From the NCBI GenBank assembly GCA_041645165.1, contig JBAZQN010000004.1, positions 18,789 to 82,788 on the forward strand: DNA of 64,000 bases, read 5' to 3'. The stretch is from Patescibacteria group bacterium. GTDB taxonomy: Bacteria > Patescibacteriota > Patescibacteriia > 2-02-FULL-49-11. The notes under the pieces are model-generated. The model was not told the DNA's origin. It did not search any database and was given only the letters and a program-made list of their open reading frames with translations. A program made the position numbers and the translations under genes. Positions within the stretch are counted from its first letter, which is position 1, and each line of letters starts with the position of its first letter. Shown one piece after another: positions 1,643 through 62,970 of the stretch.

Positions 1643-1730
1643 GGTAAAGCGCGCTCTTTTAGTCTTTCCACCACCTCTCTGCGGTGGTGTATTCGTCCCA
1701 GGCTTTCATCGACTATTTTTAAGGCGGGCC

Positions 1731-1779
1731 CTTAAAAAACAAAGTGCTGAAGTGATTGCTTAAATTCACACTCAGCACT
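1731..1779 (-). terminator. Rho-independent terminator for the minus-strand radical SAM operon
   Basis: Hairpin agtgctgaagtg...cactcagcact followed on the minus strand by a T-run (plus-strand aaaaaac at 1733-1739). It sits directly after the stop of CDS 1808..3202. Confidence 0.4.
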
Positions 1780-1807
1780 TTACGATAAGGCTCGCTCTGT
1801 GAGTAAA

Positions 1808-3202
1808 TCACTCATAGCTGACCCTTAGAATAGCCTGATAAAGATTCTCATTTTCCTTTACCAGCATTCCAAACTCCGGCAATAGCTGATCCGGAAAATT
1901 AGCGACTCTAGCCGTGTAAGGCATTGAGTCGCTGTTGAAGTATTTTTGCAAATCGGCGTATCGCCGGTGAAATTCTTCCACCGACATATGATGGGGCTTA
2001 AGTACTGTTTGCCGTAACGAGAAATGATCCGAATTATCAGTTAATAGATTGTTCGGATTGGTCCTCTCGTATAATACAGTCCCCTTAAATGGAGTGAGTA
2101 CGAAAAAGTGACAAGAAGTTAGCCCGAGCTCCATGCTCGTATAATTCAGAAGGTGGTCAAAATCATCTTGCGTGAAATTTTGATTTATCATTGACGTACC
2201 GTGTACGCTCACGGCATTTTGTCTGCAAATATTTATTGCCTTAGCATGCGATGTCGTCGTGTCCTCCTTTTTGTATGCCTCAAGCTGTTTGTCCGAGAAT
2301 CCATCAATGCCAATCCAAGCCTCCACCAAACCTGCACTTGCCCATTTTTCCAGCAGCCAAGGATTCTTTGCGACCGTGTCTGCACGGGTGTACATAATGA
2401 ATCTCTTGTTAATCCCCGAACTAATGATAGCCCCAGCTAATTCAAACATATAATCCGCTTCGATGAACGACTCATCGTCGGCTAAAAATATGTTCTCGGG
2501 AGTTAACGAGGCAATCTCTTGCACAATCCCAGCGATGTCTCGAATCTCATAACGCGGACAAATTTTCCAAAGGCAACAGAAGTTACATCTATATGGACAA
2601 CCGCTGGAAGTCTTGATTGATACCACTGGCTGTAAAACCTGCTCAAACCCCGGTCTGCCGATCGCAATATGATATTTGTACCGCGTAGATAATTCCCGAT
2701 TGGGATTCGGATAACTTTGTAATGTAACCGATGGCACAAAGCTAGTATCAATCATTGCTTGAACTACTTTCAGTCTTCTTCCTTGGGCGATCATCTTCAC
2801 TGTCACGGGAAAATTACCCATGGGATTCCTCCATATGACAACGTCGACTTTCTGAAAGAAATCGTATGGCCACAACATCACATGTATTCCTCCGACTACT
2901 GTTATGATCTTGCGATCGATATCTTTAGTTATCTGGGCGAGTTGCAACACTCTCCCAGTATTGGAGGATGTTCTTGCAGAAAAGGCAATGACATCGGGCT
3001 GAAAAGCCCTGATCGTCTGCCTAAATGCAGTATCCGGCTCCGCTTCATTATTCAAATCAATTAGACAGAGATCGTGGTAGTCCTCTACTGTCGCCGCAAC
3101 ATAACTCAACCCCAACGGTTCAAAATTATAAAAGTGCATCCCCGCGTTGACCACTGGATTGAGAGAATCTGGCTGCACAAACAATATCTTCATTTTAATC
3201 AC
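1808..3202 (-). CDS. B12-binding domain radical SAM protein (class B rSAM-like)
   Basis: N-terminal Rossmann-like B12-binding region (ILFVQPD...VIAFSA...VVGGIH). Canonical CxxxCxxC motif SSGCPYRCNFCC. 464 aa. Confidence 0.8.
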   Translation of the reverse strand: MIKMKILFVQPDSLNPVVNAGMHFYNFEPLGLSYVAATVEDYHDLCLIDLNNEAEPDTAFRQTIRAFQPDVIAFSARTSSNTGRVLQLAQITKDIDRKIITVVGGIHVMLWPYDFFQKVDVVIWRNPMGNFPVTVKMIAQGRRLKVVQAMIDTSFVPSVTLQSYPNPNRELSTRYKYHIAIGRPGFEQVLQPVVSIKTSSGCPYRCNFCCLWKICPRYEIRDIAGIVQEIASLTPENIFLADDESFIEADYMFELAGAIISSGINKRFIMYTRADTVAKNPWLLEKWASAGLVEAWIGIDGFSDKQLEAYKKEDTTTSHAKAINICRQNAVSVHGTSMINQNFTQDDFDHLLNYTSMELGLTSCHFFVLTPFKGTVLYERTNPNNLLTDNSDHFSLRQTVLKPHHMSVEEFHRRYADLQKYFNSDSMPYTARVANFPDQLLPEFGMLVKENENLYQAILRVSYE

Positions 3203-3241
3203 CTCTCTTTTTTGTATTTTATTTTTAACTGATTTTTAAGC

Positions 3242-4321
3242 TTAGCATGGGCATTCCAGAATACCCGCACTTATTTTCGGGAAGCATCTCCCCACCCACC
3301 TTTCTTTCCCGTACTTTCTATCCTTTATCTTACTGCACCGTTGCCACAACTCCGCGAGCGAAGAGTCGCGTATATTCCCAACAGTATCATCAGCCTCACA
3401 GAGTTTAATGTTCCCGATATCGTCCATATACATCCCGGCGCGAGCAATATCGCATGGTAAACCACCTGGGAATGCAACGGGGTCGGGGAAATAAATTCCT
3501 TCATGTTCTCTCAAAGTAACAAGTCTTTGTATGAGGTTTGTAATCTCACGAGGGCATGGAGAGTACTTTACTCTGATTTCAGGATCAGCCACCTTTCCAA
3601 TTGGCATTAATGGACAGACGAGCGGATAGATATTATTATGCAGTGCAAAATTAAAGATATATGCTATCTTGCCGTAGTTCTGTTTCAGGAGGACAATTCC
3701 GAAACCCAGCCTCGTAGGATGATATCTATTGAAGCCAGCAGACAGTAGGCGTGTGAGAGCTTTATTTCTCAAGGTAGAATATCCTTTCCGTTGGACGATG
3801 CTATCCTGCTGTTGTCTCTCGTACTTGAGCATTACCGTAGCTCCTATATCATGAAGTTTCCGCACGATTCCATCACACGAAAGGTGGTGAATTTTTTGTG
3901 CGAGTTCATCCGATCCCAGCACATCTCCACAGGTGAATAAAACAGGAATCACGCCAAGATTTCTGATCTTAGCGAGCAGAGGGAGTATATCTTTCCGTAG
4001 TAATGGTTCTCCTTCACCGAGAATTTTGATACTTTTCCCTCCTAGTGCTGCAAACTCTTCAAACACCCGTACAATCTCATCTTGTGTTAATTTAGGTCCA
4101 TGATTTACGCCGAAATACCCGCAATAGAAGCACTTGTTCAAACATCCACCTGGTAATGCACAGTCCATCGTGAGAGGGATGTTGTTTTTTCTTGCCTGCA
4201 CAATATCTTTATCAGAGAATGTGCCTCCCTCATATCCAAAAATTTTTGTTGTGTTTTTCATTTTTTGTCTCCTTATTTTTTTCATGTTAAAGAACATGCT
4301 TTTTATTTTTGTTATTTCCAT
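3242..4321 (-). CDS. radical SAM protein with Cys-rich C-terminal (SPASM/twitch-like) domain. Start may be an internal Met (e.g. 4285)
   Basis: CxxxCxxC motif CLNKCFYC preceded by GGC. At least seven additional Cys in the last ~120 aa (SPCP, LPCD, KLCE, QRCS, GRCF, LECPC). Confidence 0.75.
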   Translation of the reverse strand: MEITKIKSMFFNMKKIRRQKMKNTTKIFGYEGGTFSDKDIVQARKNNIPLTMDCALPGGCLNKCFYCGYFGVNHGPKLTQDEIVRVFEEFAALGGKSIKILGEGEPLLRKDILPLLAKIRNLGVIPVLFTCGDVLGSDELAQKIHHLSCDGIVRKLHDIGATVMLKYERQQQDSIVQRKGYSTLRNKALTRLLSAGFNRYHPTRLGFGIVLLKQNYGKIAYIFNFALHNNIYPLVCPLMPIGKVADPEIRVKYSPCPREITNLIQRLVTLREHEGIYFPDPVAFPGGLPCDIARAGMYMDDIGNIKLCEADDTVGNIRDSSLAELWQRCSKIKDRKYGKERWVGRCFPKISAGILECPC

Positions 4322-5624
4322 TTATAGAGTCTATTGATAACCCTTCTTTCAATGCACCCAGTATGCCAGCTGCCTCCAGATAATTCCGCGCTCGGTAAAT
4401 ATTACTCTTGCTGACATTTAGTTTATCAGGTGTCACATCTAAGACTGTGGTATTATTTGTCACCGTGATGATCGGAATATGTAACTTATTTGCAATCAAT
4501 ACTGGGATGCCTCCGCAAGATGTTTCTGGACATACAACCGCTTGTACATCATTCCGAGTAACAACACTTGAGTATTTTTCCTGTGTAAATATTATTCTTG
4601 GAGCTTTTGATAGCCCTTTAAGCACACACACCAGACCGCTTTGCGAAACATATTCGCCGGCAGAGCGAGAATCAACCACGGAATATCCAACTGGTTTGTA
4701 ATTGAGAAGCGGCGCATGTCCGCAGGGCACGCCAAAACAATAACCAATCAGATGAGAAATAATCGCTTCCACGCCGCCGATAAGATTTGGCCATTTACCT
4801 CTTAAGTGTTTTTGGTACAAATTAGCATCAATCCCGTGAATAATAGAGGTTACCGCAATCGCGTCCGTGCCTGCTTTGAGAAGTTTTTCTGCATTCTTGA
4901 GCAACCCCTCTACATTTTTTATTGTTCCAACCATTGTTCCTGAAGGCGTCCTTTCGATTATCGCTCCAATACTCTCCGACATAACCTCTATAGCCGCGAC
5001 GTTAATGCCGTGTACCGCTTGCATAGCATTAACGATATTTTCAACTAATGCGAGTCCTTGTTTATCTACTTTCTCAATAAGAAGTCCAATTTTATTATTT
5101 CTGACTGGTGCAAAGCCGATATTCCCTAGCATTAATTGATCAATCATGAATCCTTCAACATAGAGTGCACTGTTTGGAATATTAAAAAAATCAGATGCGT
5201 TGTACACATTTGGGTGTGTAATCATGACATCTGATACCGTGGCAAGTAATTGATTTGCTGGCGCGGCATCGCCTGCAAAACCACCAATACTAGCACCAAT
5301 GCCGGTCGGAACTATATGAACTAACCCATAATGAGTGGAAGTTGTCTTTGTTTCATTGAGAGTAAGGACGAAAGGGTATTGGACTGAGACATTTGTAATA
5401 GTTGCCTCAACAATTGCCTGGCGACCCTTGATTGAATTTATACTCCATCGAAGAGGAAAATAGTTTTTTAATTGTTTATGAAATATTTTTAAGACACCGT
5501 CAAAGATGCTCTGACTTTTCTGCAGGCTTATCTTGAGTATCACGTTTTTTATACCTACTGTTCTTGTCATACTCCTGCGCTCTTTCCCACGCGAGTTTCC
5601 AAATTTCCTTCTGAGCTTGTGCAA
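4287..5624 (-). CDS. conserved hypothetical protein, possibly DUF3326-like. Start uncertain; possible internal start near 5570
   Basis: Long ORF with a glycine-rich motif VPTGIGASIGGFAGDA that I recall from the DUF3326 family. It is translationally coupled between the two rSAM genes and the TrmB gene. No catalytic assignment is possible. Confidence 0.45.
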   Translation of the reverse strand: MHKLRRKFGNSRGKERRSMTRTVGIKNVILKISLQKSQSIFDGVLKIFHKQLKNYFPLRWSINSIKGRQAIVEATITNVSVQYPFVLTLNETKTTSTHYGLVHIVPTGIGASIGGFAGDAAPANQLLATVSDVMITHPNVYNASDFFNIPNSALYVEGFMIDQLMLGNIGFAPVRNNKIGLLIEKVDKQGLALVENIVNAMQAVHGINVAAIEVMSESIGAIIERTPSGTMVGTIKNVEGLLKNAEKLLKAGTDAIAVTSIIHGIDANLYQKHLRGKWPNLIGGVEAIISHLIGYCFGVPCGHAPLLNYKPVGYSVVDSRSAGEYVSQSGLVCVLKGLSKAPRIIFTQEKYSSVVTRNDVQAVVCPETSCGGIPVLIANKLHIPIITVTNNTTVLDVTPDKLNVSKSNIYRARNYLEAAGILGALKEGLSIDSINGNNKNKKHVL

Positions 5625-6354
5625 AGGCGTGGCTTTTAATAATCATTCCGAACTTCTGTTCAAACTCCATAATTGCCACCTTATCGCTATAAATATTTAC
5701 CTCAAGTCCGAAATCGAAAGGAAGATCAACTAATTTGCTTTCACGGAGATGATTTTTGTCTCGGGCTTTGACGGATTGTGCGTATTTGGTATTCGGCATT
5801 ATAACCTTAATCGGTATTTTTTTATTTGTTCGCCTGTTGAAGTAATTTTCTATAAAATTTCCCAAGCGTTCATACACGATCTTGCCGCCGGCGTAAGCCA
5901 GAATTTCTTCTGAAGAGGTAAGCGTATCTTCATATACTTTCTTAATGCCCTCGATCCCTTCGTAAAAGCTTATTTCCGGTTTTTCTGTTCCAGTTTTATA
6001 AATTGTTTGCAGTTGGGCAATGATATCATCAACACTCAACTCGAGCTTTTTAGCGTTTCTCGTTACTCTTAAAACTATATCCTTAAGCCGCGCCGGGCTT
6101 AATGCCTTGATCGCCTTCCCTCTCCGCTTGTCTACAAGCAATTCAATCAACCCTTTCTCCAAAAGTGAATCAAGAACTTTATATCCCGTCACGCGGTCTA
6201 TGTGCGCCGCTTGTGAAATTTCTGGCACAGAAGCGATCCCCAAGGTAAGGGAGGCGGTATAAAATTTGATTTCACTATGAGATAAACCTAATTTCTTTAA
6301 AAAGTTGGTTATTTTTTCTTGTGGAAGCATATATTTTAGTTGATATATAGTCAA
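5500..6354 (-). CDS. TrmB-family HTH transcriptional regulator (paralog A). The likely true start is the internal Met at 6330
   Basis: N-terminal HTH (SHSEIKFYTASLTLGIASVPEISQAAHIDRVTGYKVLDSLLEKGLI) with a TrmB-like C-domain. It has two paralogs in this window (16887.., 47673..) sharing the FYEG..G....YED and K.PIK motifs. Confidence 0.7.
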   Translation of the reverse strand: MTIYQLKYMLPQEKITNFLKKLGLSHSEIKFYTASLTLGIASVPEISQAAHIDRVTGYKVLDSLLEKGLIELLVDKRRGKAIKALSPARLKDIVLRVTRNAKKLELSVDDIIAQLQTIYKTGTEKPEISFYEGIEGIKKVYEDTLTSSEEILAYAGGKIVYERLGNFIENYFNRRTNKKIPIKVIMPNTKYAQSVKARDKNHLRESKLVDLPFDFGLEVNIYSDKVAIMEFEQKFGMIIKSHAFAQAQKEIWKLAWERAQEYDKNSRYKKRDTQDKPAEKSEHL

Positions 6355-6410
6355 ATAATTATTATATTGTTAGAAAAAATAAGTTTGGTTAGCCAATAAT
6401 ATGATATCTT

Positions 6411-6431
6411 TTAGTTGACGATGTGTCAACT
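6411..6431. promoter_or_regulatory. perfect inverted repeat TAGTTGAC-N5-GTCAACTA in the promoter region of the rSAM/TrmB operon; candidate operator
   Basis: tagttgacgatgtgtcaacta sits in an AT-rich region upstream of the TrmB-A start. Confidence 0.3.
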
Positions 6432-6508
6432 AATAATAAAACCAACTCTGTAAGAGTGGCTGATAAAGATAATTATATAATCCCCATTACGGGGAATAAA
6501 TGAAATGC

Positions 6509-9500
6509 TTAGCCTTTCCACCACCTCTCTGCGGTGGTGTATTCGTCCCAGGCTTTCGCGGAGAGATCGTCTTCTTTTGTGGTGCTGAGTGAACGCAAAT
6601 ACATTTTCGCGATTTTGAGGTCAGTATGGAGAGGGATATGGCTGTCCACCGCCAATCTTCTGATAAAAAAGCCGTCAGTCCGCGAAGACGAGGTCTGACG
6701 GCGTTCAGGGATATTAATAACACAATCAACTTTCCTCCCCCTTATCCATTCGCTGACATTGGGGCTCCCCCCTTCGCTCACCTTGCGCAAGCACAACGTT
6801 TCGATGCCGTTATCCTCCAAAAAATTCGCGGTATGCTCCGTGGCGGCGAAAACGAATCCCTGACGGGAAAGTGCCTGGATATCAAAAAGAAGAATACCTT
6901 TGGCGGTATCTGGGCCGATCGAAAGGAGTATTGTTTTTTTAGGATAATAATTGCCTGCCGCCGCAATCGCCTTCAAAAAAGCCTCCTCATAAGAATCGCC
7001 GAAACAGGCCACCTCGCCGGTGGACGCCATTTCCACCGTAGGCTTCGGGTCCGCGCCTTTAATGCGGCTAAAGGAATACTTAGGCGCTTTCACGGCCACA
7101 TAATCAAGGTCAAGGGTACGGTAATCTCCGCGGATATCCTCACCGAGCATGGCGCGGGTGGCGAAATCAATAAAATTATAACGAGACACCTTTGACACGA
7201 AAGGAAATGACCGGCTTGCGCGAAGATTGCACTCAATCACCTGGATGCGGTTGTCTTTGACGAGGAATTGGATATTGAAGGGGCCGGTGATATCTAACTC
7301 TTTCACGATATTCCTGCATACGAGCTTCACCCGCCGCGTCGTTTCAAGGAACAGCCGCTGTGGGGGATAGACGACGGTCGCGTCGCCCGAATGGACTCCC
7401 GCGTGCTCCACGTGTTCGGTAACCGCATATAGCACCAGCTCACCCTTTTGCGCGACACCGTCGATCTCCACCTCTTTGGCGCCCTCAATGAATTTCGAGA
7501 CGACCACGGGATGATCCGGCGTCACGGCCGATGCCGCAGTAAGATAGCGGGTAAGCTCTTCCTCATCCTCCGCGACATTCATGGCCGATCCTGAAAGCAC
7601 GTAGGACGGGCGCACGAGTACGGGAAATCCCGCGGCATTGGCAAACGCGCACGCTTCGCGCACGGTAGTGAGCTCTTTCCATGCAGGCTGGTCTATATTG
7701 AGCCGGTCAAGAAGCGCGGAAAACTTGTGCCGATCCTCTGCGCGGTCTATATTCCGGGCTGACGTGCCCCACAGGGGCACTTTGGCGTGCGCAAGAGACA
7801 GCGCAAGGTTATTCGGCACCTGCCCTCCCATAGAGACCACCAATCCCCTCGGACGCTCAAATTCGCAGATATCCAGGATGCGCTCCAAGGTCAATTCCTC
7901 GAAGTAGAGGCGATCAGACATGTCATAGTCAGTGGAGACCGTCTCGGGATTTGAATTGACCACAATCGTGCGAATTTTCTTGTGCCGCAAAGTTTTGGCA
8001 GTATTCACGCAGCACCAGTCAAATTCAACTGAAGAGCCGATGCGATAGGGGCCGGAACCAAGCACGATGGCGGGGCGCCGCTCACGCGTTACATCATGTG
8101 CGCTCCCGTGGTAAGTGCAGTAGAGGTAATTGGTCTTCGCGGGAAATTCTCCCGCGGTCGTATCAATTTGTTTTACCGTAGGCACCACGCCGCATTGTTT
8201 CCTCAACCTGCGGACCGCGTGTTCTGTATGGGCGCACGCCTCAGCGATGCACGCATCTGAAAATCCTAACTGTTTAAGTTTTTTTAATGCAGGTGTGTTG
8301 CGCCTCACTTCGTCCCATCCTTTTGCGCGTAAGGACGCATACGCTCCCGCAAGCGTTTTGAGATGCGAGAGAAACCATGGATCAATGCCGCTCAAGCGCG
8401 CGATGCGGGAGACGTTCACCTTGTGCCCTAGCGCAAAGGTAAAGGCAAAAAGGCGCGACGGCGTAGGAATGCGGATATCGCGGAGCGCTTTCTCAAGGTC
8501 ATGATATCCGTTATTCATAAACAGTTCTTTTCCCAAGCACAACATCCTCACCGCCTTTTGAAGCGCCTCAGGGAAACTGCGCCCCAGCGCCATCACTTCG
8601 CCCACGCTTTTCATCTCTGAACCTATAGTAAGCTCGGCGGCGCGGAATTTCGTAAGGTCCCACCGGGGAATTTTTACTGCGATATAATCAAGAGCCGGTT
8701 CGAAAAAGCTGCCGGTCGCGCGCGTAATCGCATTGGGTATCGCATGGAGCGGAATCCCAAGCGCCGCTTTGGTCGCCACAAATGCCAGAGGATATCCCGT
8801 GGCTTTTGACGCGAGCGCAGACGAGCGGGAAAGGCGCGCATTCACCTCTATCACTCTGATACGAGGCATGACACGGCTTTTCACCCGAGGTTTCGGCTCT
8901 ACTGCAAACTGGATATTGCATTCTCCCACAATATCCAGGTGATGCGCCACCTTGAGCGCCATGGCGCGCAATAAATGGTATTCCTTATTGGAAAGCGTTT
9001 GCGAGGGAGCAACCACGATGCTTTCGCCCGTGTGGATGCCCATGGGATCCATATTTTCCATATTGCACACGGTAACCGCATTGCCAAAAGAATCCCGCAT
9101 GATCTCATATTCAATTTCCTTCCAACCTCCCAAGTACTCTTCCAAAAGGGCCTCTCCCCCCTGCGACAGCGCAGTGTTTAATAACTCCCTTAATTCACGC
9201 GGGTTGCGCGCATAACCAGACCCTAAACCTCCCAGCGAAAAACCAACACGTACCATGACCGGATAGGCAATGCGTTTTGCGAAGAGAAGCCCCTCCTCCA
9301 TATTCTTCACGGTGGTGCCGCGCGGCACCGCGATCCCGATCTTTTGAAGCCGCGCAGAAAAAGCAGCCCTGTCTTCAGTGTCATGAATCGTTTTCAGGGA
9401 AGTGCCTAAAACGCGGACCCGATGCCGCTTCAGAACGCCCTCGCGATCCAACTCAAGTCCGAGGTTCAATGCAGACTGGCCTCCCACATTCAAGAGGATG

Positions 9501-9769
9501 GCATCAGGGTGCTCCCGCGCGATAATGCGCGCAGCAAAATGAAGGGTCAGGGGAAGAAAATATACCCGATCCGCAAAATCCGCGTCAGTCTGCACGGTGG
9601 CGATGTTGGGATTTAAGAGAACAGTTTTGATGCCTTCTTCCTTAAGCGCCTTAATCGCCTGCGAACCGGAATAATCAAACTCTCCGGCTTGGCCGATTTT
9701 CAAACCGCCGGAACCGATGATAAATACTTTCTTCGGAAGGGTCTTTTTTGATAATGTGTTTTGCATCAC
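6509..9769 (-). CDS. carB: carbamoyl-phosphate synthase large subunit
   Basis: 1086 aa with duplicated ATP-grasp halves. N-terminus KKVFIIGSGGLKIGQAGEFDYSGSQA. C-terminal MGS-like domain. The last 15 codons are encoded by a dispersed 47-bp repeat (see findings). Confidence 0.95.
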   Translation of the reverse strand: MMQNTLSKKTLPKKVFIIGSGGLKIGQAGEFDYSGSQAIKALKEEGIKTVLLNPNIATVQTDADFADRVYFLPLTLHFAARIIAREHPDAILLNVGGQSALNLGLELDREGVLKRHRVRVLGTSLKTIHDTEDRAAFSARLQKIGIAVPRGTTVKNMEEGLLFAKRIAYPVMVRVGFSLGGLGSGYARNPRELRELLNTALSQGGEALLEEYLGGWKEIEYEIMRDSFGNAVTVCNMENMDPMGIHTGESIVVAPSQTLSNKEYHLLRAMALKVAHHLDIVGECNIQFAVEPKPRVKSRVMPRIRVIEVNARLSRSSALASKATGYPLAFVATKAALGIPLHAIPNAITRATGSFFEPALDYIAVKIPRWDLTKFRAAELTIGSEMKSVGEVMALGRSFPEALQKAVRMLCLGKELFMNNGYHDLEKALRDIRIPTPSRLFAFTFALGHKVNVSRIARLSGIDPWFLSHLKTLAGAYASLRAKGWDEVRRNTPALKKLKQLGFSDACIAEACAHTEHAVRRLRKQCGVVPTVKQIDTTAGEFPAKTNYLYCTYHGSAHDVTRERRPAIVLGSGPYRIGSSVEFDWCCVNTAKTLRHKKIRTIVVNSNPETVSTDYDMSDRLYFEELTLERILDICEFERPRGLVVSMGGQVPNNLALSLAHAKVPLWGTSARNIDRAEDRHKFSALLDRLNIDQPAWKELTTVREACAFANAAGFPVLVRPSYVLSGSAMNVAEDEEELTRYLTAASAVTPDHPVVVSKFIEGAKEVEIDGVAQKGELVLYAVTEHVEHAGVHSGDATVVYPPQRLFLETTRRVKLVCRNIVKELDITGPFNIQFLVKDNRIQVIECNLRASRSFPFVSKVSRYNFIDFATRAMLGEDIRGDYRTLDLDYVAVKAPKYSFSRIKGADPKPTVEMASTGEVACFGDSYEEAFLKAIAAAGNYYPKKTILLSIGPDTAKGILLFDIQALSRQGFVFAATEHTANFLEDNGIETLCLRKVSEGGSPNVSEWIRGRKVDCVINIPERRQTSSSRTDGFFIRRLAVDSHIPLHTDLKIAKMYLRSLSTTKEDDLSAKAWDEYTTAERWWKG

Positions 9770-9777
9770 AAAGGATA

Positions 9778-9886
9778 TAAATCAAAATGCAAATCTCAAA
9801 ATCCAAAATGAAAGTGTAAAATTTATAAATTTTGATTTATCATTTTGATTTTTGATTTTTGGATTTTACATTTATACGGTAAGGTG
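9778..9886. repeat. AT-rich inverted-repeat element (family caaaatgcaaa...cattttgatttttgatttttggattttacatt) between carA and carB
   Basis: Imperfect ~40-bp palindrome. The right arm 9841-9872 is identical to 62931-62962, and the left arm matches 62868-62895 with 2 mismatches. Confidence 0.7.
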
Positions 9887-14454: not shown

Positions 14455-14579
14455 GACAGTCTTCAGTTTATTAGTTTTTCAGTTCATCAGTCGTCAGATT
14501 GGAGGGCGGTATTGATATAGTGTATTCAATAAACGCAAGAAGTCCCCAGGATGCACGAAGTATCTGGGGACTTTCGGTT

Positions 14580-15950
14580 TTAACGATCGAATGGCATCTT
14601 GCGATTAATCCATTCGATCAATTTCTGTCGCCACCGAGGTCGTTTCCCGCCTTGAGGAAGGAGAGGGAAGGTGGTGTTTTTCCCAAATGGCGTGAGAAGG
14701 ATGATGATGGTAAGGTAGGCAAGGTTGCTTGCCCACCTATGCCATCTGCGTGGGTGGGTGAGGGGAGAGCCCAGCGCGGCGAAGTCGAGGTTATAGAAGA
14801 AACTTGGATGACGAACTGTCTTCTCTACTGGCGCGGCGAAATTTACACTCATCCAGTTGTCGTTCTTCGGGATGAACATCTTCGCTAGATATGGTCTTGC
14901 CACTGCTCCGCAGAAGAAACTTTTACGAACACTGTACCAAACAGTCTTCGCAAGCGTTCGTAAGTTATCTTCAGGAAAGCCAAACACCATCAACAGCTCC
15001 GCCGTAATCCCGACTTCACGGCAAATTTCCAGAACACGGTCACCGAGGGATAACCGGTTGTGGGTTTTATTCTCATCACGCCAGACTTTCTCATCCGTAC
15101 CGTCGAAACCGAACCCAACCGCAAAGAGGTTGGCTTTCATTACCAATTCGTGAAAGTTCGGCAAGGTTTTATAGGCAGTGATAAATGAGGAAATGCAGGA
15201 GAGTCCACGGATGCGAATCTGCACCCCGGTCTTCTCACTCACATCTCCCACAATGGTGAGAAAGTCAGCGAACAACCGCGGGCTTTGAAACAAGTCCAAA
15301 CTGGAGATATAGAATTGTAATTTGGACAGTCCAAATTCTCTTGCCTTACCTGCGAGGTATTGCAGGTCGGTCCGAATCTTCTCGAGAGAACGGAACCGTT
15401 CCTGTCGTGATTTTGCCGCACCGCAGAATCGGCACGCAAAACGGCAGCCCTGCGCTACAAAGAGACCTGCTTCTTGCTCGAGATAAAGTTTCAACGCCTC
15501 GTCCGAGATAGTTTTGTACATCTTAACGCAGTCGATCTCAAACACATCTGGAAGTTGGTTAACGCCGAGTGCTTTTTTCAAGGTGCTATCATTGTTAATT
15601 TGGATAGGTTTATCGCCGAAGAGCGTTTTGAACTGATTAGGAAGCAATCCTTCAGTCACTTGTCCGCCAATAAGAATCGTGGCGCGAGGATTAACTTGAT
15701 ACACTTGGTTCGAGAACTGAATAGCGTCCGGCATATTAGAACTACCAACAAGAGAGGTACCAATAAAATCAGCTGCACGGACTTTATCTTGTACCCATTG
15801 CTCGTCAAGGGAGTTAAGATTGAGATCAATCAACTCGACCTCAAAGCCTGCCTCAATAAGTTGTGCACCCACAACGATCAGGGTGCTGGGCAGGTATATT
15901 TGCCGTTTCCCAAACGGGTACGGCAGATTAAACAGTGATATCTTTTTCAT
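14580..15950 (-). CDS. radical SAM protein with N-terminal B12-binding-like domain (second rSAM locus). The C-terminal ~50 aa are low-complexity and may be over-extended
   Basis: CxxxCxxC motif AQGCRFACRFCGA. N-terminal Rossmann-like domain. A glycine-rich GFGFDG region. Confidence 0.7.
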   Translation of the reverse strand: MKKISLFNLPYPFGKRQIYLPSTLIVVGAQLIEAGFEVELIDLNLNSLDEQWVQDKVRAADFIGTSLVGSSNMPDAIQFSNQVYQVNPRATILIGGQVTEGLLPNQFKTLFGDKPIQINNDSTLKKALGVNQLPDVFEIDCVKMYKTISDEALKLYLEQEAGLFVAQGCRFACRFCGAAKSRQERFRSLEKIRTDLQYLAGKAREFGLSKLQFYISSLDLFQSPRLFADFLTIVGDVSEKTGVQIRIRGLSCISSFITAYKTLPNFHELVMKANLFAVGFGFDGTDEKVWRDENKTHNRLSLGDRVLEICREVGITAELLMVFGFPEDNLRTLAKTVWYSVRKSFFCGAVARPYLAKMFIPKNDNWMSVNFAAPVEKTVRHPSFFYNLDFAALGSPLTHPRRWHRWASNLAYLTIIILLTPFGKNTTFPLLPQGGKRPRWRQKLIEWINRKMPFDR

Positions 15951-15985
15951 GATTTAGCTCCTTTTTAAATTGTCAAAGAATTTTC
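15951..15985 (-). promoter_or_regulatory. conserved leader motif TTGACAATTTAAA(AA)GGAG immediately upstream of the start codon (copy 1)
   Basis: Minus-strand reading: ttctttgacaatttaaaaaggagctaaatcATG. It is almost identical to the leader of the adjacent gene (16560-16595). Confidence 0.4.
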
Positions 15986-16004
15986 GATTTTAGTTTTAGG
16001 ACTC

Positions 16005-16559
16005 TTACCAAGAGAATTCGAGCCCCAGCAGGTTTCCTGCCCACTGGGTTGGTTTCCAAAGCCTCACTTTACAGCAGAAGCGCCCCCATCTGGCTTTGAC
16101 AAAGGGTCCAACTTTAAGCTGACGGCTCTCATTGAAGATCCAAATAAACTGTTCCCCAATTCCAATATCGAGTGATTTCTTTTTAAGAAGATGGAGGTCT
16201 GTGAGGTGGTAAAGCCATCTCCCCTTCCTAGTCACTGAAACTTGATTAAGGCCAGTGACATATTTGTTATCGACATAGCACTCAAAAGAAAATCCTGCAT
16301 AATGGCCAAACAGTATCCCAATGGCTGGGATAATCTTGAGTGGAGTGATTTGGAATGGTGTCGATTTGCCGATGAATGTTTCTAAGGTTTTTTCAAAGTG
16401 GTTATATCTTGCATCTATCCAAATTCCGCCCACTTTGATACTCCCCCATAGAAATGGCTCTATCCCTTTTTCGGTAGAAGCCATGAACAGCGTAAAATCT
16501 TGCGCGGACGCGGTGTCCACGCATGCGAGGGCTAAAAGCACAAATAATATCTTTTTCAT
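16005..16559 (-). CDS. hypothetical secreted protein (signal peptide MKKILFVLLALACVDTASA)
   Basis: Classic Sec signal peptide. 184 aa. Aromatic-rich with a C-terminal EFSW. It is paired with the rSAM gene and shares its leader motif. Confidence 0.5.
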   Translation of the reverse strand: MKKILFVLLALACVDTASAQDFTLFMASTEKGIEPFLWGSIKVGGIWIDARYNHFEKTLETFIGKSTPFQITPLKIIPAIGILFGHYAGFSFECYVDNKYVTGLNQVSVTRKGRWLYHLTDLHLLKKKSLDIGIGEQFIWIFNESRQLKVGPFVKARWGRFCCKVRLWKPTQWAGNLLGLEFSW

Positions 16560-16595
16560 TGTATTTCTCCTTTAAATTGTCAATGATTCTATATT
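16560..16595 (-). promoter_or_regulatory. conserved leader motif TTGACAATTTAAAGGAG (copy 2)
   Basis: Minus-strand reading: tcattgacaatttaaaggagaaatacaATG. Confidence 0.4.
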
Positions 16596-16799
16596 TCTAT
16601 ATTTCGGATTTTAACGAGGTAGTATATGCCTGTGATAGCAAATGTATAGGCTATCTAAGACACTTACATTAGATATTGCAATTTTTTGGCTAATATAATA
16701 TAATAAAAGTGTCGGGGAAGTTTCCACAACATTGTCATGTAGAAGCCACTTTACGCCTTGAATAACGCAAGTTCACGCCATTGGTCATAACTCCCCTAG

Positions 16800-16875
16800 C
16801 CCCTCTTATCCTAAAGAGGGGGGAAATTGTGCGACACCCTCACCTTAATCCTCTCCCTTTCTAGGAAGAGGGGGT
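16800..16875. repeat. two GC-rich palindromes (cccctcttatcctaaagagggg; ctctccctttctaggaagaggg) upstream of TrmB paralog B
   Basis: Members of the CCCCTC..TTA..TAA..GAGGGG hairpin family seen throughout the window. Confidence 0.7.
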
Positions 16876-16886
16876 ACGAAAGGAAT

Positions 16887-17648
16887 ATGAAAGAAGATTT
16901 ATTAAAAATACTCGCAGATATTGGATTTTCGGAGAAAGAGGCGAAAGTGTATCTCGCCCTGCTTGCGCTTGAAGCGGCGACGGCGAATGAGATCGCAAAA
17001 AAAGCAGACATCAATCGGACATCAGCATATGATGTGTTGGAAATTTTAATTAAAAGAGGAGTGGTGAGCAAATACAAGAAGAAGAGCCGAACGTTTTTTA
17101 ACGTGAGCGATCCGAGGAAACTCATTGCATATCTCGAGCATGAAAAAGCTGATCACGAGAAGACGATTGAGAAACAGAAGACAGCGGTGTCCGTAATCCT
17201 GCCCGAGCTTATTTCTTTGCAAATGCCCTTAAGCACGAGGCCGAAGGTGCAGTTCTATGAAGGCGAAAAAGGAATGCGGGAGGCGTATGAAGATACGCTT
17301 AACGCGAAGGAAGGAATCTTGGCATATGCAAACGTTGAGACTGTTCATGCGGGTATTCCGAATTTTTTTCCGGAGTATTATCAGAGGAGGACAAAACTAG
17401 GAGTACCTATTAAAGCAATTTTTACAGAAAACGAACTTTCGCGTGAACGCGCTTCTCATAATCGGGAAGAGCTACGCCAAACAAAATTTTTACCTGATGC
17501 AAGCATGAAATTCTCGCCCGAGGTGAACATCTATAATAATAAAGTACTTATCGCGTCATGGCAGGAAAAAATGGCTGTGATTATTGAGTCCAAGGAATAC
17601 GCAGATCTCATGCGGCTGACGTATCAGTTGTTATGGGATCGGCTTTGA
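16887..17648 (+). CDS. TrmB-family HTH transcriptional regulator (paralog B). The ORF-track TTG start at 16827 is probably upstream of the true ATG
   Basis: MKEDLLKILADIGFSEKEAKVYLALL aligns with the N-termini of paralogs A and C. An RBS-like aaaggaa precedes the ATG. Confidence 0.7.
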   Translation: MKEDLLKILADIGFSEKEAKVYLALLALEAATANEIAKKADINRTSAYDVLEILIKRGVVSKYKKKSRTFFNVSDPRKLIAYLEHEKADHEKTIEKQKTAVSVILPELISLQMPLSTRPKVQFYEGEKGMREAYEDTLNAKEGILAYANVETVHAGIPNFFPEYYQRRTKLGVPIKAIFTENELSRERASHNREELRQTKFLPDASMKFSPEVNIYNNKVLIASWQEKMAVIIESKEYADLMRLTYQLLWDRL

Positions 17649-17760
17649 CTTTCTAGTGCCGTTACAATATAGTTTTCGGTGATGCGTTTCCATAATTCAT
17701 CCTATTTTATTATATATTTTATGAATGGTATATCTGAAATTCAAATTGTAACGGTACTAG

Positions 17761-17786
17761 ATTCCGGATCAAGTCCGGAATGACAC
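17761..17786 (+). promoter_or_regulatory. ATTCCGGATCAAGTCCGGAATGACAC palindromic leader element immediately upstream of pyrC
   Basis: Perfect hairpin attccgga-tcaag-tccggaat followed by gacacatacctATG. A near-identical GGAATGACAC.TAC..T-ATG tail precedes pyrD. Confidence 0.5.
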
Positions 17787-17792
17787 ATACCT

Positions 17793-21215: not shown

Positions 21216-21701
21216 ATGCAAAAAATTATTATTGGAGTAATGGGACCAGGAGAGAGTGCCGCCGAATCAGACAGAGAACATGCTTATCAAATGGGGAAAC
21301 TTATTGCCCAAGCAGGGTGGGTATTGTTAACCGGCGGTCGGAATAGAGGGGTGATGGATGCTGCGAGTAAAGGTGCAAAAGAGCATGGTGGCCTTACCAT
21401 AGGAATCTTACCTACCTCAGATCCAAATACTGTGTCTGATGCTGTTGACATGCCGATATTTACAGAAATGAAAAGCGCACGGAATAATATCAATGTACTC
21501 TCTAGTAGAGTAATCGTGGTATGTGGTATGAGTGCGGGAACTGCTTCTGAAGTTGCAATGGCTCTCGTGGCAAACAAACCAATCATTCTCATTGATCAAA
21601 ACAAAATAAGTAAGGATTTTTTTCAAACTTTAGGAAAAGAAAAGGTCAATTTTGTAGATACACCTCTAGAAGCTCTTGATAAGATAAAACACTTATTATG
21701 A
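21216..21701 (+). CDS. LOG-family / TIGR00725-like Rossmann-fold nucleotide-binding protein
   Basis: IGVMGPG....GGRNRGVMDAASKGA...GMSAGTASEVAMAL, resembling the PGGxGTxxE LOG signature. Confidence 0.55.
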   Translation: MQKIIIGVMGPGESAAESDREHAYQMGKLIAQAGWVLLTGGRNRGVMDAASKGAKEHGGLTIGILPTSDPNTVSDAVDMPIFTEMKSARNNINVLSSRVIVVCGMSAGTASEVAMALVANKPIILIDQNKISKDFFQTLGKEKVNFVDTPLEALDKIKHLL

Positions 21702-32059: not shown

Positions 32060-34036
32060 TTATTGCGCCGGTAGGGTTGCCGGTTGGCCTGCGCCTGTGG
32101 GAGGAACTGTTTGCCCTTGGAACATGCCCTGCCCTTGAGGATTAAATCCGCCTCCTCCCATAAATCCCTGGCCTCCATTCTCTCCATCCATTACTTCCTG
32201 CTTTTCAAATCCCTGCGGTAACTGGAAATTGTAATTTACTCCCTTATCCGCTCTCACCGTCGGCATATATTCAGCGCCTCCACGCAGCTGATCAAGCGTA
32301 TCAGAGATTTGCTCTTTGGTCGCAAATACTGATTCTACCTTATCGATAAGGTCATCAGCGGTAAAATTCTTTGAAGCTACTAGTTGCTTTAGCTCTTCAA
32401 TCTGTGCTTTGAGCGCCGTGAGCAACTCCTCTGCGCCGCTGGTGTCAATTTTCTTGCTCTTAAACTTCTTAATCTGCTGCTCAAAAGTTTTTATCTCCTG
32501 CTTCGCGCTCGTTAATCCTTTGCTTACATTGAGCGCCATTTCCACGGAAGTGCGCGCGTTCTTCACATTATCCATCTGTCCGTAAAAATCATCTTCAATC
32601 TTTTCTAGCGCCGCTTCGGGATCTGTTGTGGTAAGAGCTTTGGCATCCTTAAGCGCAGTGCCCAGCAGCGATACTTCCTGCTTATATTGATTCAAAAATT
32701 CCGTGAGATCTACTTTCTTGTTTGCCTTTACCTGTTTTTCAATACGAGTCGCATCGCGTTCTGCGGTCTTAATATCTTTCTCGGCTTGCTTCACCATACC
32801 GCAAATCCTCGTAAGGTTACCGAGCTTCGGCCCCCACTCCTGCATCACCGATCCCACATCTTCAATATCAGTAATGACCTCCTCGAGCGCATCCGCGGTC
32901 TCTGCCGCTTGAATTTTGGTAACCATGCCGTCAGCAGCGCTTAAGGCATTTGATAATTCTTCCGGAAGACCGACTCCGCATTTTTGCAGTTTCGTTTTGA
33001 TCTTCGCGACACTCGTCTTCATCATTTTAACCCCCTTCGCGAATTGTCCCATCCCTTGCTTCATCTGCTTGAAACGCATTTCATCCATTTTCTTCATTTG
33101 CTCTTCCGACGGGCCGCCTTGCTCTCCTTGACCGAATTGCCCTCCTTGATCGCCCTGCCCAAACCCTCCTTGATTACCAGGGCCAAATCCTTGACCACCG
33201 CCCCATTGAGTATTCCCTCCATTTCCTCCGGGACCGCCCATGCCCCCGCCTTGGCTTTGATTGTAATTACTACAAGGACCTGGCATATCAACGCCATTCA
33301 CGCGGCAGGTCGTGGTCTGCGGTTCATTGTAGCCAGCCCCACCAGAGCCACCAGTGCCCATCGGACCAGGCTGATACTGGCCGCCGGACGGAGGTTGATA
33401 TCCGCCAGAAGGCTGGTTGTACATTCCTTGATCGCCGCTTGGCGGTGGTGGCACACCTCCGCTTGAACCGCTCGGCGGGGGCGGCATGCTGCCGTCTTGC
33501 GCGGCATTCACCGTACTCTCTCCTAACACTGCACCTCCCAAGATATAGGTCACATACGTTTTCTTTGACTCGGGACTTTGCATGAGCGCAATACGCACTG
33601 CAGAACCATTCTTAGTAAACGTAAGTCCGTCATCGCTTTGTCGCCAACAATGCTGGCTTAAATTTTGAGAATAAAAAGAAGCAACTGATTCTGGCGTTGC
33701 TTTCATGGTATAGATAACGTGTGCGCCGTTCCCGTCGAAGCTGATCCGCTTGGCAGTATCGTATAAAGGCACGTTCGTGATGAGTCCGCGCACTTCCTGT
33801 CCTTGTGGTACACTCGCGCATACTATTCTCCCCTCTGCGCTATGTGCGACACGCTGTGATGCCCAGAGTGAGCTGATCGGCTCTGCACTCGTCATCTCGC
33901 TGTACTGGCTCGAGATGAGCGATGCAGCAAAAAGCGATGCTGCGCCGACCACAGCAATGCCGGATATTGCTTTTAGCATATGTTTTTGTTTTAATTTTCG
34001 GCTCACGCTACCGAAATGCTTAGTAATTACGTTCAT
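32060..34036 (-). CDS. secreted protein with a long G/Q/P-rich low-complexity region and a C-terminal coiled-coil. Start taken at an internal Met giving the signal peptide
   Basis: Signal peptide MLKAISGIAVVGAASLFAAS. A GGxGxG/QGG repeat block. KEL-rich heptad-like region. Confidence 0.5.
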   Translation of the reverse strand: MNVITKHFGSVSRKLKQKHMLKAISGIAVVGAASLFAASLISSQYSEMTSAEPISSLWASQRVAHSAEGRIVCASVPQGQEVRGLITNVPLYDTAKRISFDGNGAHVIYTMKATPESVASFYSQNLSQHCWRQSDDGLTFTKNGSAVRIALMQSPESKKTYVTYILGGAVLGESTVNAAQDGSMPPPPSGSSGGVPPPPSGDQGMYNQPSGGYQPPSGGQYQPGPMGTGGSGGAGYNEPQTTTCRVNGVDMPGPCSNYNQSQGGGMGGPGGNGGNTQWGGGQGFGPGNQGGFGQGDQGGQFGQGEQGGPSEEQMKKMDEMRFKQMKQGMGQFAKGVKMMKTSVAKIKTKLQKCGVGLPEELSNALSAADGMVTKIQAAETADALEEVITDIEDVGSVMQEWGPKLGNLTRICGMVKQAEKDIKTAERDATRIEKQVKANKKVDLTEFLNQYKQEVSLLGTALKDAKALTTTDPEAALEKIEDDFYGQMDNVKNARTSVEMALNVSKGLTSAKQEIKTFEQQIKKFKSKKIDTSGAEELLTALKAQIEELKQLVASKNFTADDLIDKVESVFATKEQISDTLDQLRGGAEYMPTVRADKGVNYNFQLPQGFEKQEVMDGENGGQGFMGGGGFNPQGQGMFQGQTVPPTGAGQPATLPAQ

Positions 34037-34076
34037 TATAACACGGATTTCACCAAAATGCAACTTTATTATCCAT

Positions 34077-34457
34077 TCAATCTAAGCGGGTCGTGTTATT
34101 TTCTTTTTTAAACCAATTTATAAAAAATAAAATTCCAATAAAAAATGCAGGTCCCGCAATAATGAGCGACCAAGATATCATATACCATTCAAATGGACTC
34201 ATCATGAGCATAATAATATAGAGCACTCCGGCGAGTGTAAAAGCAATTCCTCCCACTATTTCATATTTCCATGAGATTAAGAGAACTGCCAATAAAATAA
34301 ACGCGGGAATATTGTGCATCAACAGTCCTACAATTGTTTGCCAAAAGCCAAGCTTTAACTCAAAAACATCTAATGAAAACAACACGAGGAAGAGGATGAA
34401 CATGATCGATAAGCCCCTTGGCGTCCAATATATAAATTTGCTAACCCTTTTTTCCAT
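34077..34457 (-). CDS. small membrane protein (4 TM), in an AT-rich island
   Basis: Strongly hydrophobic 126 aa. The codon usage is AT-rich like its neighbour. Confidence 0.4.
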   Translation of the reverse strand: MEKRVSKFIYWTPRGLSIMFILFLVLFSLDVFELKLGFWQTIVGLLMHNIPAFILLAVLLISWKYEIVGGIAFTLAGVLYIIMLMMSPFEWYMISWSLIIAGPAFFIGILFFINWFKKENNTTRLD

Positions 34458-34495
34458 ATTTCTGCATTAGGAAATATCAATATCTGGGGCTATTT

Positions 34496-36001
34496 TTATT
34501 TTAAAATTATATTGTCTTGTATCTCGGAAACTTCACTCACTTCAGCTCCATATCTCTTTATAATACTCAAAGTGTTGTTATCGATATAAAAATTAAACTC
34601 CTCACTACCATTTTTCTTTTGTAATTCAACGGCTTTATTGTAAAAAGTATAATTCTTGCCAACATTAATTTTTATTAAAACTCCACCAGCCATACTTAGT
34701 AGCGACTCACCAATACTCGGCCCCCTTTCTTCTAAAAATCCTATGAAGCCCGCACCTTGCCACATGGTTGGCATGTCCATATTATAAAAAGAATACTTAA
34801 TAACTGGATCAGGAGATATGATGTCGCTGTATTTATCTAAGAATTTAAAATACAGCGCAGCGTTTTTACTGCCAAAAAATTCATGACTCACGTTAAGCTC
34901 TAACTTAACTAAAGCAGAAGAGTTATTTTTAATTTCGTCTAACTCTCTTAAGTACTTTTCTAATACTTCAACATTCTGATTCAATTCAATTAATTTTTCG
35001 CCGCTTAATTTAGCTATTGATATGCCGACTAGCTTCACTATTAGACCATCATCTTTATCGCGAATTAATTGGTCACCAAATAATAATAGCTGATAAAGAT
35101 TTTCTTTTGCCTGCGAAAATTGATTGTGTGAAATTTGCTCATCCGTCAATTTAATAATCCCACGACTGAATGCACGCAAATTATTTAAAGGTACAATCAT
35201 ACTGTTACGATATAATATTATATCATCTGGCATATATTCTTCTGACAAACTCAAATACCCGGCTTGATTTAACAGGCGTAATACTTCCAGGTCGCCTTCA
35301 CTAGGTATAATATAATTAAAAGCACTTACTTCTGTATCATCCTTTTGTTGTTTCCTATTATTCAAATTATTTATGAGTTCAATAAATTTTGTCGCCGAGT
35401 TACCGTTTCGATCAAAACTATATCCCGTAATATTATTTATATTAATAGTGGGATATAGATAGAAATCTTCCTGAATGTCTGCATTTTTATAATTTTTGTT
35501 AAAGTTAATTCTATAAAGATAGAAATTCGCAGTATAACTAACAACTAGTAATAAAGTAATAGCAACAAATATTTTTCTACGCTTTTTTAAAATAAAAACA
35601 GAATATATAATATTTAAATAAACATAATTAAAAAAACAAATAAGTACAATATATACATAAAAAGGTGTGTGGTATGTGCTTGATATATTACTCGAATTAA
35701 GATAGAAAAAAGCAAATAACGTACCTAAAATTAATTGCAGTAATACCGTGGCAGTAATCAATTTTGAAATATTATTTTGAACTAACTCTTTGTTATTTTT
35801 ATTTAATATTTTAATAGTAAGAATAAATGCAACAGCTATAAATAAGATCTTAACAATTATACTAATTAGAAGAATGTTCAATAGTCTGACTGTTGAATAG
35901 CCTGATAGATTTAAAAGGGTGCTATAAGCACCATAAAGCAAACCGTAAAGCAGTCCATTCAAAAATAACATTTTTATTAATAATAATGTAAATTTTTTCA
36001 T
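34496..36001 (-). CDS. hypothetical membrane protein (N-terminal ~6 TM plus a large N/K/I/Y-rich soluble domain), in an AT-rich island
   Basis: 501-aa ORF with composition sharply different from the flanking genes. Confidence 0.5.
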   Translation of the reverse strand: MKKFTLLLIKMLFLNGLLYGLLYGAYSTLLNLSGYSTVRLLNILLISIIVKILFIAVAFILTIKILNKNNKELVQNNISKLITATVLLQLILGTLFAFFYLNSSNISSTYHTPFYVYIVLICFFNYVYLNIIYSVFILKKRRKIFVAITLLLVVSYTANFYLYRINFNKNYKNADIQEDFYLYPTININNITGYSFDRNGNSATKFIELINNLNNRKQQKDDTEVSAFNYIIPSEGDLEVLRLLNQAGYLSLSEEYMPDDIILYRNSMIVPLNNLRAFSRGIIKLTDEQISHNQFSQAKENLYQLLLFGDQLIRDKDDGLIVKLVGISIAKLSGEKLIELNQNVEVLEKYLRELDEIKNNSSALVKLELNVSHEFFGSKNAALYFKFLDKYSDIISPDPVIKYSFYNMDMPTMWQGAGFIGFLEERGPSIGESLLSMAGGVLIKINVGKNYTFYNKAVELQKKNGSEEFNFYIDNNTLSIIKRYGAEVSEVSEIQDNIILK

Positions 36002-47559: not shown

Positions 47560-47672
47560 ACGGCGTAGTATATCTCTGTTAATTATTTCGACAATAAAAT
47601 TTTATTTATTTCGCTAAAATTAAAGAAAATTAACCACCTCCAACTTATTATGTAGAAATAAATTACAACTAT

Positions 47673-62865: not shown

Positions 62866-62970
62866 AATTCAAAATGCAAAACTCAAAATGCAAAATTGTG
62901 GAGTCCCGCTTAAGCGGGACAACACTCCTTCATTTTGATTTTTGATTTTTGGATTTTACATTCGGTACGC
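62866..62970. repeat. AT-rich inverted-repeat element, second copy of the 9778-9886 family, enclosing a ggagtcccgcttaagcgggac hairpin
   Basis: The 32-mer cattttgatttttgatttttggattttacatt is identical to 9841-9872. Confidence 0.7.

Follow-up and report, generated by a model that had tools for sequence, protein, structure and literature searches.

A rare radical-SAM enzyme pair in an inserted, TrmB-linked cassette at the carB 3′ end of a Patescibacteria genome

To our knowledge, only a few radical S-adenosylmethionine (SAM) enzymes have free amino acids as their substrates, and new chemistry has come to light with each of them. Here we analyse a 64,000-nucleotide stretch (the window; position 1 is its first letter, and coordinates refer to it unless another locus is named) of a 101-kb metagenomic contig from a metagenome-assembled genome of the Patescibacteria (candidate phyla radiation, CPR). 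It contains one unit of four co-directional minus-strand genes for a TrmB-like regulator, a DUF3326 protein, a radical-SAM enzyme of the SPASM/twitch type and a radical-SAM enzyme with a B12-binding domain. Each of the four has described counterparts: archaeal TrmB and TrmBL1/Tgr for the regulator, SPASM/twitch enzymes such as SkfB, SuiB and MoaA for the twitch enzyme, HpnR and BchE for the B12 enzyme, and, for DUF3326, PavB of the pavettamine operon, which is needed together with PavA for the condensation of lysine/cadaverine (bioRxiv 10.64898/2026.06.12.731819). PavB is the only DUF3326 protein with an experimental link. In a literature search, neither this enzyme pair nor a patescibacterial TrmB was the subject of any paper found.

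The four genes constitute one operon in the pyrimidine-biosynthesis region, directly after carA-carB (Table 1). The original prediction, made from the letters alone, had placed four minus-strand open reading frames (ORFs) at this site and assigned their domains. All four ORFs were found, and Pfam recovered PF02310 (56.3 bits, cut-off 32.1, residues 26-122) and PF04055 (48.4 bits, cut-off 29.5, residues 197-353) in the B12 enzyme, PF04055 in the twitch enzyme (46.7 bits, cut-off 29.5), PF11805 in the DUF3326 protein (E = 1.5e-89, 300.8 bits versus 25, profile positions 3-336 of 337) and PF01978, the TrmB winged helix, in the regulator (41.5 bits, cut-off 25.6). The motifs CLNKCFYC, CPYRCNFC and VPTGIGASIGGFAGDA are likewise present. 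According to homolog alignments and gene calls, the regulator probably starts at ATG 6330 and the DUF3326 protein at GTG 5543, the latter giving 418 residues. The twitch enzyme probably starts at 4297 or 4261 within its 359-residue ORF, and gene callers assign 456-461 residues to the B12 enzyme, whose ORF comprises 464.

Table 1. Coordinates of the operon, its control elements, the cassette boundaries and the associated c5 family.
Feature	Position	Strand	Remarks
B12-binding-domain radical SAM	1808-3202	-	PF02310 + PF04055
SPASM/twitch-group radical SAM	3242-4321	-	PF04055 only; 359-residue ORF
DUF3326 protein	4287-5543	-	418 residues from GTG 5543; ORF reaches 5624; PF11805
TrmB-family winged-helix regulator	5500-6330	-	276 residues from ATG 6330; ORF reaches TTG 6354; PF01978
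Intrinsic operon terminator	1731-1779	-	15-bp stem, then GUUUUUU
Sigma-70-like promoter	6401-6429	-	-35 TTGACA 6429-6424, 17-nt spacer, -10 TATCAT 6406-6401
Operator-like perfect palindrome O1	6412-6432	.	TAGTTGAC-N5-GTCAACTA, 0 mismatches, overlaps -35 hexamer
Operator-like palindrome O2	6337-6357	.	TAGTTGATATATAGTCAAATA, 2 mismatches to O1 pattern, immediately upstream of TrmB ATG
Hairpin + U-run	6440-6461	-	Just past carB stop codon; supplied by cassette left end
Left-hand direct repeat	6509-6557	.	Functional carB 3′ end + stop codon
Right-hand direct repeat	1659-1707	.	49-nt duplicate of carB 3′ end including stop codon; downstream cassette boundary
carB	6509-9769	-	Neighbour on operon's upstream side
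c5 family	L006 9016-10767; equivalents in L010, L016, L024, L037, L038, L042, L043		Bacterial Liv-type operons

Our analysis also showed two properties of the locus that the original prediction had overlooked, a low GC content and a duplicated carB 3′ end. The two copies of the 49-nt repeat agree at 48 of 49 positions, the right-hand copy lies just beyond the operon terminator, and the repeat is one of only two direct repeats of at least 30 nt across the whole window. The 4850-bp interval has a GC content of 41.3%, compared with 49.7% for the remaining window and 53% for carB. Given the duplicated carB end and the low GC content, the operon is an inserted cassette of 4.85 kb at the carB 3′ end. 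It contains no gene for a recombinase or integrase, and there is no room for one, the four genes filling 1708-6508.

A related Patescibacteria genome, represented by two NCBI assemblies (L035 and L036), has a cassette in the same position, between perfect direct repeats of 45 nt, with genes only for TrmB, the twitch enzyme and the B12 enzyme. DUF3326, which had been counted among the defining parts of the pathway, does not deserve that place: because it is missing from the cassette of the closest relative, it is an optional accessory enzyme and not a core member. Between the window and L035, nucleotide identity amounts to 89.5% over the flanks and the TrmB gene but to 76.8% over the two radical-SAM genes (diverged enzyme part: window 1808-5584, L035 3679-6452), a split that suggests recombination inside the cassette with allelic replacement. 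The window TrmB is 93% identical in amino acid sequence to its L035 ortholog and ends in a 25-residue C-terminal tail, which overlaps the DUF3326 start and is found neither in the ortholog nor in either of two paralogs encoded in the window. This tail looks like a junction scar and suggests that a divergent, DUF3326-bearing allele replaced the enzyme part of the cassette. The cassette is horizontally exchanged, regulated and bounded by terminators.

Two further ideas about the mobility of the cassette were tried and rejected. A 4866-bp Logan contig from another sample (L002), 100% identical and containing exactly the four genes, was considered as a circular excised form, but its ends coincide precisely with the points at which the 44-nt shared repeat forces a de Bruijn unitig of k = 31 to break, and it is therefore no evidence of a circle. 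A phage origin was discarded as well, IMG/VR containing neither relatives of the twitch enzyme nor a copy of the repeat.

The operon terminator, noticed earlier as a hairpin with a T-run, was confirmed by folding (minimum free energy -29.5 kcal/mol, z = -4.73; 0 of 200 shuffled sequences equally stable) and is kept in L035. The sigma-70-like promoter matches the consensus at 11 of 12 positions, is the top-scoring one in the region, and has both its -35 and its -10 hexamer kept in L035/L036. The perfect palindrome announced by the original prediction is real, but its position had been given as 6411-6431, one base off the correct 6412-6432. The 7-bp half-sites of this palindrome (O1) are kept in L035/L036, and the core of the second one (O2), TTTGACTATATATCAACTAAA, is identical there over the compared stretch 6336-6356. 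Two matches to the palindrome pattern, O1 and O2, compare with 0.12 expected by chance, and the operon is probably auto-repressed by its own TrmB. On the carB side, the hairpin folds with a window z of -2.6 and its L035 equivalent with a z of -3.8; the stem sequences are unlike, yet both fold before a U-run, and this hairpin is a replacement terminator for carB. Rfam gave no match in 10 related loci at the gathering threshold nor in the window at 1-20 kb at E <= 0.1, and hence no riboswitch clue to the ligand.

The CxxxCxxC motif of the twitch enzyme, CLNKCFYC, is invariant in its family, which also shares a conserved N-terminal FGYxGGTF motif and, in the last third of the sequence, four invariant cysteines that presumably bind a single auxiliary Fe-S cluster. 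Both these cysteines and the structural similarity of the AlphaFold2 (AF2) model (predicted local distance difference test score, pLDDT, of 92) to known members place the protein in the SPASM/twitch subgroup. The earlier description as a SPASM-like radical-SAM enzyme is thus right for the structural group but not for the SPASM domain proper (PF13186/TIGR04085): PF13186 did not match the window protein at E <= 0.01, and only 1 of 72 family members has a precomputed PF13186 match, so that "twitch-like" is the better label. A MoaA model reaches 41 bits on the enzyme, compared with cut-offs of 231-325, and covers about the N-terminal 100 residues or fewer. NCBIfam has no named family either for this enzyme or for its next-nearest clades. 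A word-indexed search returned 72 twitch-family proteins, and a full hidden Markov model (HMM) scan of 1.84 billion cluster representatives yielded only 7 above 300 bits, followed by a sharp drop. By these searches the family is a distinct and rare clade.

In the B12 enzyme, a B12-binding domain is fused to a radical-SAM core, the domain arrangement of class B radical-SAM enzymes. Its CxxxCxxC motif, CPYRCNFC, is invariant in the family, as are C202/C206/C209 and GGxH. The HpnR model (TIGR04367) aligns over nearly the full length of the protein with 157.1 bits versus a cut-off of 650, the BchE model (TIGR02026) scores 116.9 bits versus 481, and the Tes model 15.5 bits versus 450. Around the window protein there is a tight subfamily of ~20 proteins at 385-768 bits, followed by a gap down to 249 bits. 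At least 11 members of this subfamily are putatively co-located with twitch-family proteins, judging by equal lengths of their longest contigs, and several were confirmed to be adjacent.

For the comparison across lineages, 37 further twitch-gene loci were gathered, some of them duplicate contigs of one locus, and their genes were classed by local profile HMMs and Pfam. A B12 radical-SAM gene, either of the window subfamily (c4) or of a second one (c6), adjoins the twitch gene in ~13 of ~23 informative non-redundant loci (window, L035, L009, L011, L013, L016, L021, L022, L024, L012, L026, L038 and L043). The hosts of the pair are CPR bacteria, DPANN archaea, Aminicenantes, Zixibacteria and Ignavibacteria. 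The conserved core is a rare, co-inherited radical-SAM pair. None of the proteins is a characterised housekeeping enzyme, and together they are an uncharacterised variant within known enzyme superfamilies. The original prediction had proposed a novel modification pathway. HpnR, BchE and MoaA models all score far below their cut-offs and the pair is adjacent across phyla; with no housekeeping match and a pair conserved in this way, the reading as an uncharacterised pathway survives.

The bacterial operons (Aminicenantes, Zixibacteria, Ignavibacteria and unbinned) have a common order: binding protein, twitch enzyme, B12 enzyme (sometimes absent), c5, LivH, LivM, LivG and LivF. The twitch gene is immediately preceded, and often overlapped, by a gene for a homolog of Leu/Ile/Val-binding proteins (PDB 4n0q match, E = 4e-52) in at least 11 bacterial loci, and the genes for the LivH/M permease and the LivG/F ATPase lie downstream of the twitch gene. 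The c5 family, encoded right after the twitch (or B12) gene, comprises proteins of 550-630 residues with N-terminal hydrophobic, membrane-span-like segments, for which neither Pfam nor the PDB contains relatives. In the Ignavibacteria (L011 and L013) the c5 core (hhalign 98% in L013) is fused to an N-terminal nucleoside-2-deoxyribosyltransferase-like domain, a weak Pfam match on the L011 protein, and a ThsB-like TIR gene lies near the fusion. DPANN archaea have the twitch gene alone or with a B12 radical-SAM gene, beside Lrp/AsnC or HTH_10 regulators. As a separate observation, the Liv-type operons hosting the twitch enzyme are repeatedly interrupted by selfish modules (L038 7957-12193; L013 9403-11397), among them a DUF433/DUF5615 pair, proteins of the PDDEXK_3 and DUF6880 families, and additional ORFs that separate the permease genes.

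The DUF3326 protein consists of Rossmann-like domains and a small N-terminal beta-alpha-beta-beta domain, and the motif PTGIGxxIGGxAGDA is conserved in the family. The search returned 2,766 homologs, none of them more than 44% identical to the window protein. A DUF3326 gene stands beside the twitch gene in only three contexts (the window, the archaeal locus L009, and L037), in each of them in a different gene order. Elsewhere, a homolog is found inside a non-ribosomal peptide synthetase (NRPS) cluster.

Three independent leads, all of them circumstantial, point towards an amino-acid substrate: the Leu/Ile/Val-type importer, the archaeal Lrp/AsnC regulators, and the amino-acid and amine contexts of DUF3326. 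The Liv-importer operons in particular suggest a small-molecule substrate. On balance, and with a confidence somewhat short of even, we favour a free amino acid, or a metabolite derived from one, over a ribosomal peptide as the target of radical tailoring. The reading in full is a good deal more tentative: the pair, together with lineage-specific DUF3326 or c5, may form an unrecognised radical pathway that modifies an imported free amino acid, is common to anaerobic sediment bacteria, CPR bacteria and DPANN archaea, and has spread within the CPR as an integrase-less cassette at the carB 3′ end. If so, a branched-chain or hydrophobic substrate is likely, and the modification could consist in C-methylation, rearrangement or cyclisation of the amino acid.

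Mechanistically, the pair would act on the free amino acid or a small molecule derived from one. If the twitch enzyme works as its relatives do, it would initiate the chemistry through hydrogen abstraction by a 5′-deoxyadenosyl radical, leading to oxidation, rearrangement or C-C bond formation; methylation of an unactivated carbon is the most plausible role of the B12 enzyme. Where a DUF3326 protein is encoded as well, it would contribute a redox step of the Rossmann type or one of amine condensation. Binding of TrmB to O1 and O2 would keep the promoter repressed until TrmB is released by a ligand, which may be the substrate. In free-living bacteria these enzymes go together with a LivJ/K-LivHMGF importer and the membrane protein c5, and the CPR and DPANN versions are reduced to enzymes and regulator.

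Several points weigh against this proposal. The amino-acid substrate is deduced wholly from the neighbourhoods seen in other lineages, and no transporter gene is part of the CPR cassette. The twitch gene of several DPANN loci stands by itself among unrelated housekeeping genes, so that its substrate could be a molecule that most cells contain. For the B12 enzyme, both the binding of cobalamin and the transfer of a methyl group are assumed by analogy; cobalamin synthesis is rare in CPR bacteria, and the best PDB sequence match of the enzyme is AprD4, a B12-domain enzyme that is not known to use cobalamin, so that function cannot be read from the B12 domain alone. The direct repeats come without any integrase to account for them. 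Finally, the RiPP (ribosomally synthesised and post-translationally modified peptide) maturases SkfB and SuiB are among the nearest structural neighbours of the twitch enzyme, with non-RiPP enzymes scoring almost equally.

RiPP maturation, towards which the original prediction had leaned, would have the twitch enzyme crosslink or epimerise a ribosomal peptide and the B12 enzyme C-methylate it, with the precursor gene elsewhere. That prediction had itself noted the lack of an obvious precursor-peptide ORF in the locus, and our small-ORF search agrees: no small ORF is conserved near the twitch gene in ~30 loci, every cluster of candidates being a shadow frame inside a larger gene, and the intergenic spaces of the cassette measure 39-150 nt and are occupied by terminator and promoter. 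In addition, the radical-SAM core of the AF2 model is preceded by only ~45 residues, which form a single strand and a single helix and no RiPP recognition element (RRE)/PqqD-like domain, and none of the neighbourhoods contains genes for PqqD, a leader protease or an export ATP-binding cassette (ABC) transporter. The recurrent partner is an amino-acid importer, not an exporter. We therefore consider RiPP maturation unlikely.

The genomic setting invites a different explanation, the modification of a nucleotide or nucleoside, possibly by an anti-phage cassette making a viperin-like modified nucleotide. The cassette is variable, low in GC, flanked by repeats and situated within a pyrimidine-biosynthesis cluster; the Ignavibacteria operons contain the ThsB-like TIR gene and the nucleoside-deoxyribosyltransferase-like domain, and two DPANN loci have dCMP deaminase/HIT and PurN neighbours. 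Against this, PADLOC returned pVip matches only at noise level (15-20 bits, E = 1e-4) plus weak helix-turn-helix matches and otherwise nothing meaningful, viral contigs (IMG/VR) contain no relatives, defence systems do not typically include an importer operon, and the TIR gene is confined to two related loci whose operons also carry other inserted selfish modules. Such a role is improbable, more so than RiPP maturation.

A housekeeping-type function that is borne by a cassette here by chance, with a cofactor or a macromolecule (tRNA, rRNA or protein) as the target of modification, has about the same slight probability as the nucleotide explanation. A ubiquitous substrate fits the twitch gene that is solitary among housekeeping genes in several DPANN genomes, and enzymes of the MoaA, NirJ and AhbD type are the best sequence-model matches, but all such models stay far below their cut-offs. 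The family is also very rare, cassette content varies among close relatives and a second TrmB/B12 cassette is missing in a relative, which speaks against an essential role, and the dedicated inducible-type regulators and the importer context suggest a metabolite. Remodelling of lipids or other hydrophobic metabolites, in which scavenged membrane lipids might, for instance, be methylated and joined by C-C coupling in the manner of HpnR or GDGT-MAS/Tes, is equally improbable, given the low HpnR and Tes scores reported above, the lack of lipid-biosynthesis genes in any neighbourhood and a recurrent partner that consists of a hydrophilic amino-acid-type binding protein with its importer.

A dedicated TrmB regulator had been regarded as unusual and its pattern as repeated at two more loci. 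The first view did not stand: the 64-kb window encodes three TrmB paralogs, and the regulators of other lineages are of the AsnC or HTH_10 type, so that TrmB seems to be an ordinary kind of regulator for this genome and not a special feature. As to the second, the two further paralogs exist (16827-17648 and 47673-48404, both on the plus strand, also delimited as 16890-17642 and 47682-48398), but only one of them stands beside a B12 radical-SAM gene, which belongs to a different subfamily, and neither is accompanied by a twitch or DUF3326 gene. Flanking direct repeats were not found at these two loci. TrmB-linked radical-SAM cassettes, variable between the window genome and its relatives, are thus accessory, exchangeable genes in this lineage.

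The first of the two paralogs is part of a second accessory cassette at 14484-17792 (GC ~44%), which also encodes a 184-residue protein without Pfam match (16005-16559, minus strand) and the B12 radical-SAM enzyme of the different subfamily (14580-15950, minus strand); it is missing in the relative L041, where pyrC directly abuts comM. The other paralog is divergent to a gene for a 322-residue protein (46591-48404 region) with a weak Methyltransf_33 match (E = 7e-4).

Other observations in the window lie outside these loci. Between pyrF and pyrE, at 21216-21701, there is a SLOG/LOG-like gene (PF18306 LDcluster4) that is missing at the same position in L041, which makes it another small indel of the pyr cluster. 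The region 32060-36001 is very AT-rich (30% GC at 34-36 kb), contains ORFs of 667 and 501 residues without Pfam match and is perhaps a further foreign insertion. Perfect copies of a 33-nt T-rich element, TCATTTTGATTTTTGATTTTTGGATTTTACATT, occur at 9840-9872, between carA and carB, and at 62930-62962, downstream of an FtsH-like gene fragment; these two copies are intergenic and 53 kb apart, and degenerate copies occur at 9827 and 57928.

If the proposed amino-acid pathway exists, it would add one more to the free-amino-acid pathways of radical-SAM enzymes. A rare enzyme pair that is tied to a specific importer in free-living anaerobes has been kept in genome-reduced CPR and DPANN symbionts of otherwise minimal metabolism, and its product would show where such symbionts invest scarce genome space. 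The product would also give context to DUF3326, with its thousands of homologs, and to the orphan c5 family. Independently of the chemistry, an integrase-less, repeat-flanked cassette and the allele swap within it bear on the exchange of accessory genes in CPR genomes. Current understanding is not overturned by these results, which offer a well-defined target rather than a surprise.

Compared with described systems, the cassette shares with genomic islands at gene 3′ ends the repeats that duplicate the target 3′ end and leave the gene intact, the atypical GC content and the variable content among relatives. It differs from them in the absence of a recombinase, in its size of only 4.85 kb and in a target that is the protein-coding carB and not a tRNA gene. 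The regulator shares with archaeal TrmB and TrmBL1/Tgr the N-terminal TrmB winged helix and two inverted repeats in its own promoter (GTTGAC-N5-GTCAAC), whose 6-N5-6 layout resembles the glycolytic motif of the Thermococcales. Unlike these, the window protein is bacterial (CPR), has no detectable PF11495 sugar-binding domain and stays below the NCBIfam TrmB/TrmBL1 equivalog cut-offs (15-25 bits versus 500-650; TrmBL1 25.5 versus 650).

With PavB and the DUF3326 family at large, the window protein has in common the full-length PF11805 match and the PTGIGxxIGGxAGDA motif, and the partners differ, being PavA/PavC, NRPS genes or cyanobacterial fed3 there and radical-SAM enzymes here. From the SPASM/twitch enzymes (SkfB, SuiB, anSME, BtrN, MoaA, PqqE and BlsE) the window enzyme is set apart by having neither PF13186 nor an RRE. 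The B12 enzyme is closest to the HpnR/BchE-like branch of class B radical-SAM enzymes, with which it shares the N-terminal B12-binding Rossmann domain and the radical-SAM core. It differs in scoring below the equivalog cut-offs, in a context free of hopanoid or bacteriochlorophyll genes, and in belonging to a subfamily of its own, whose members are often encoded beside a twitch enzyme.

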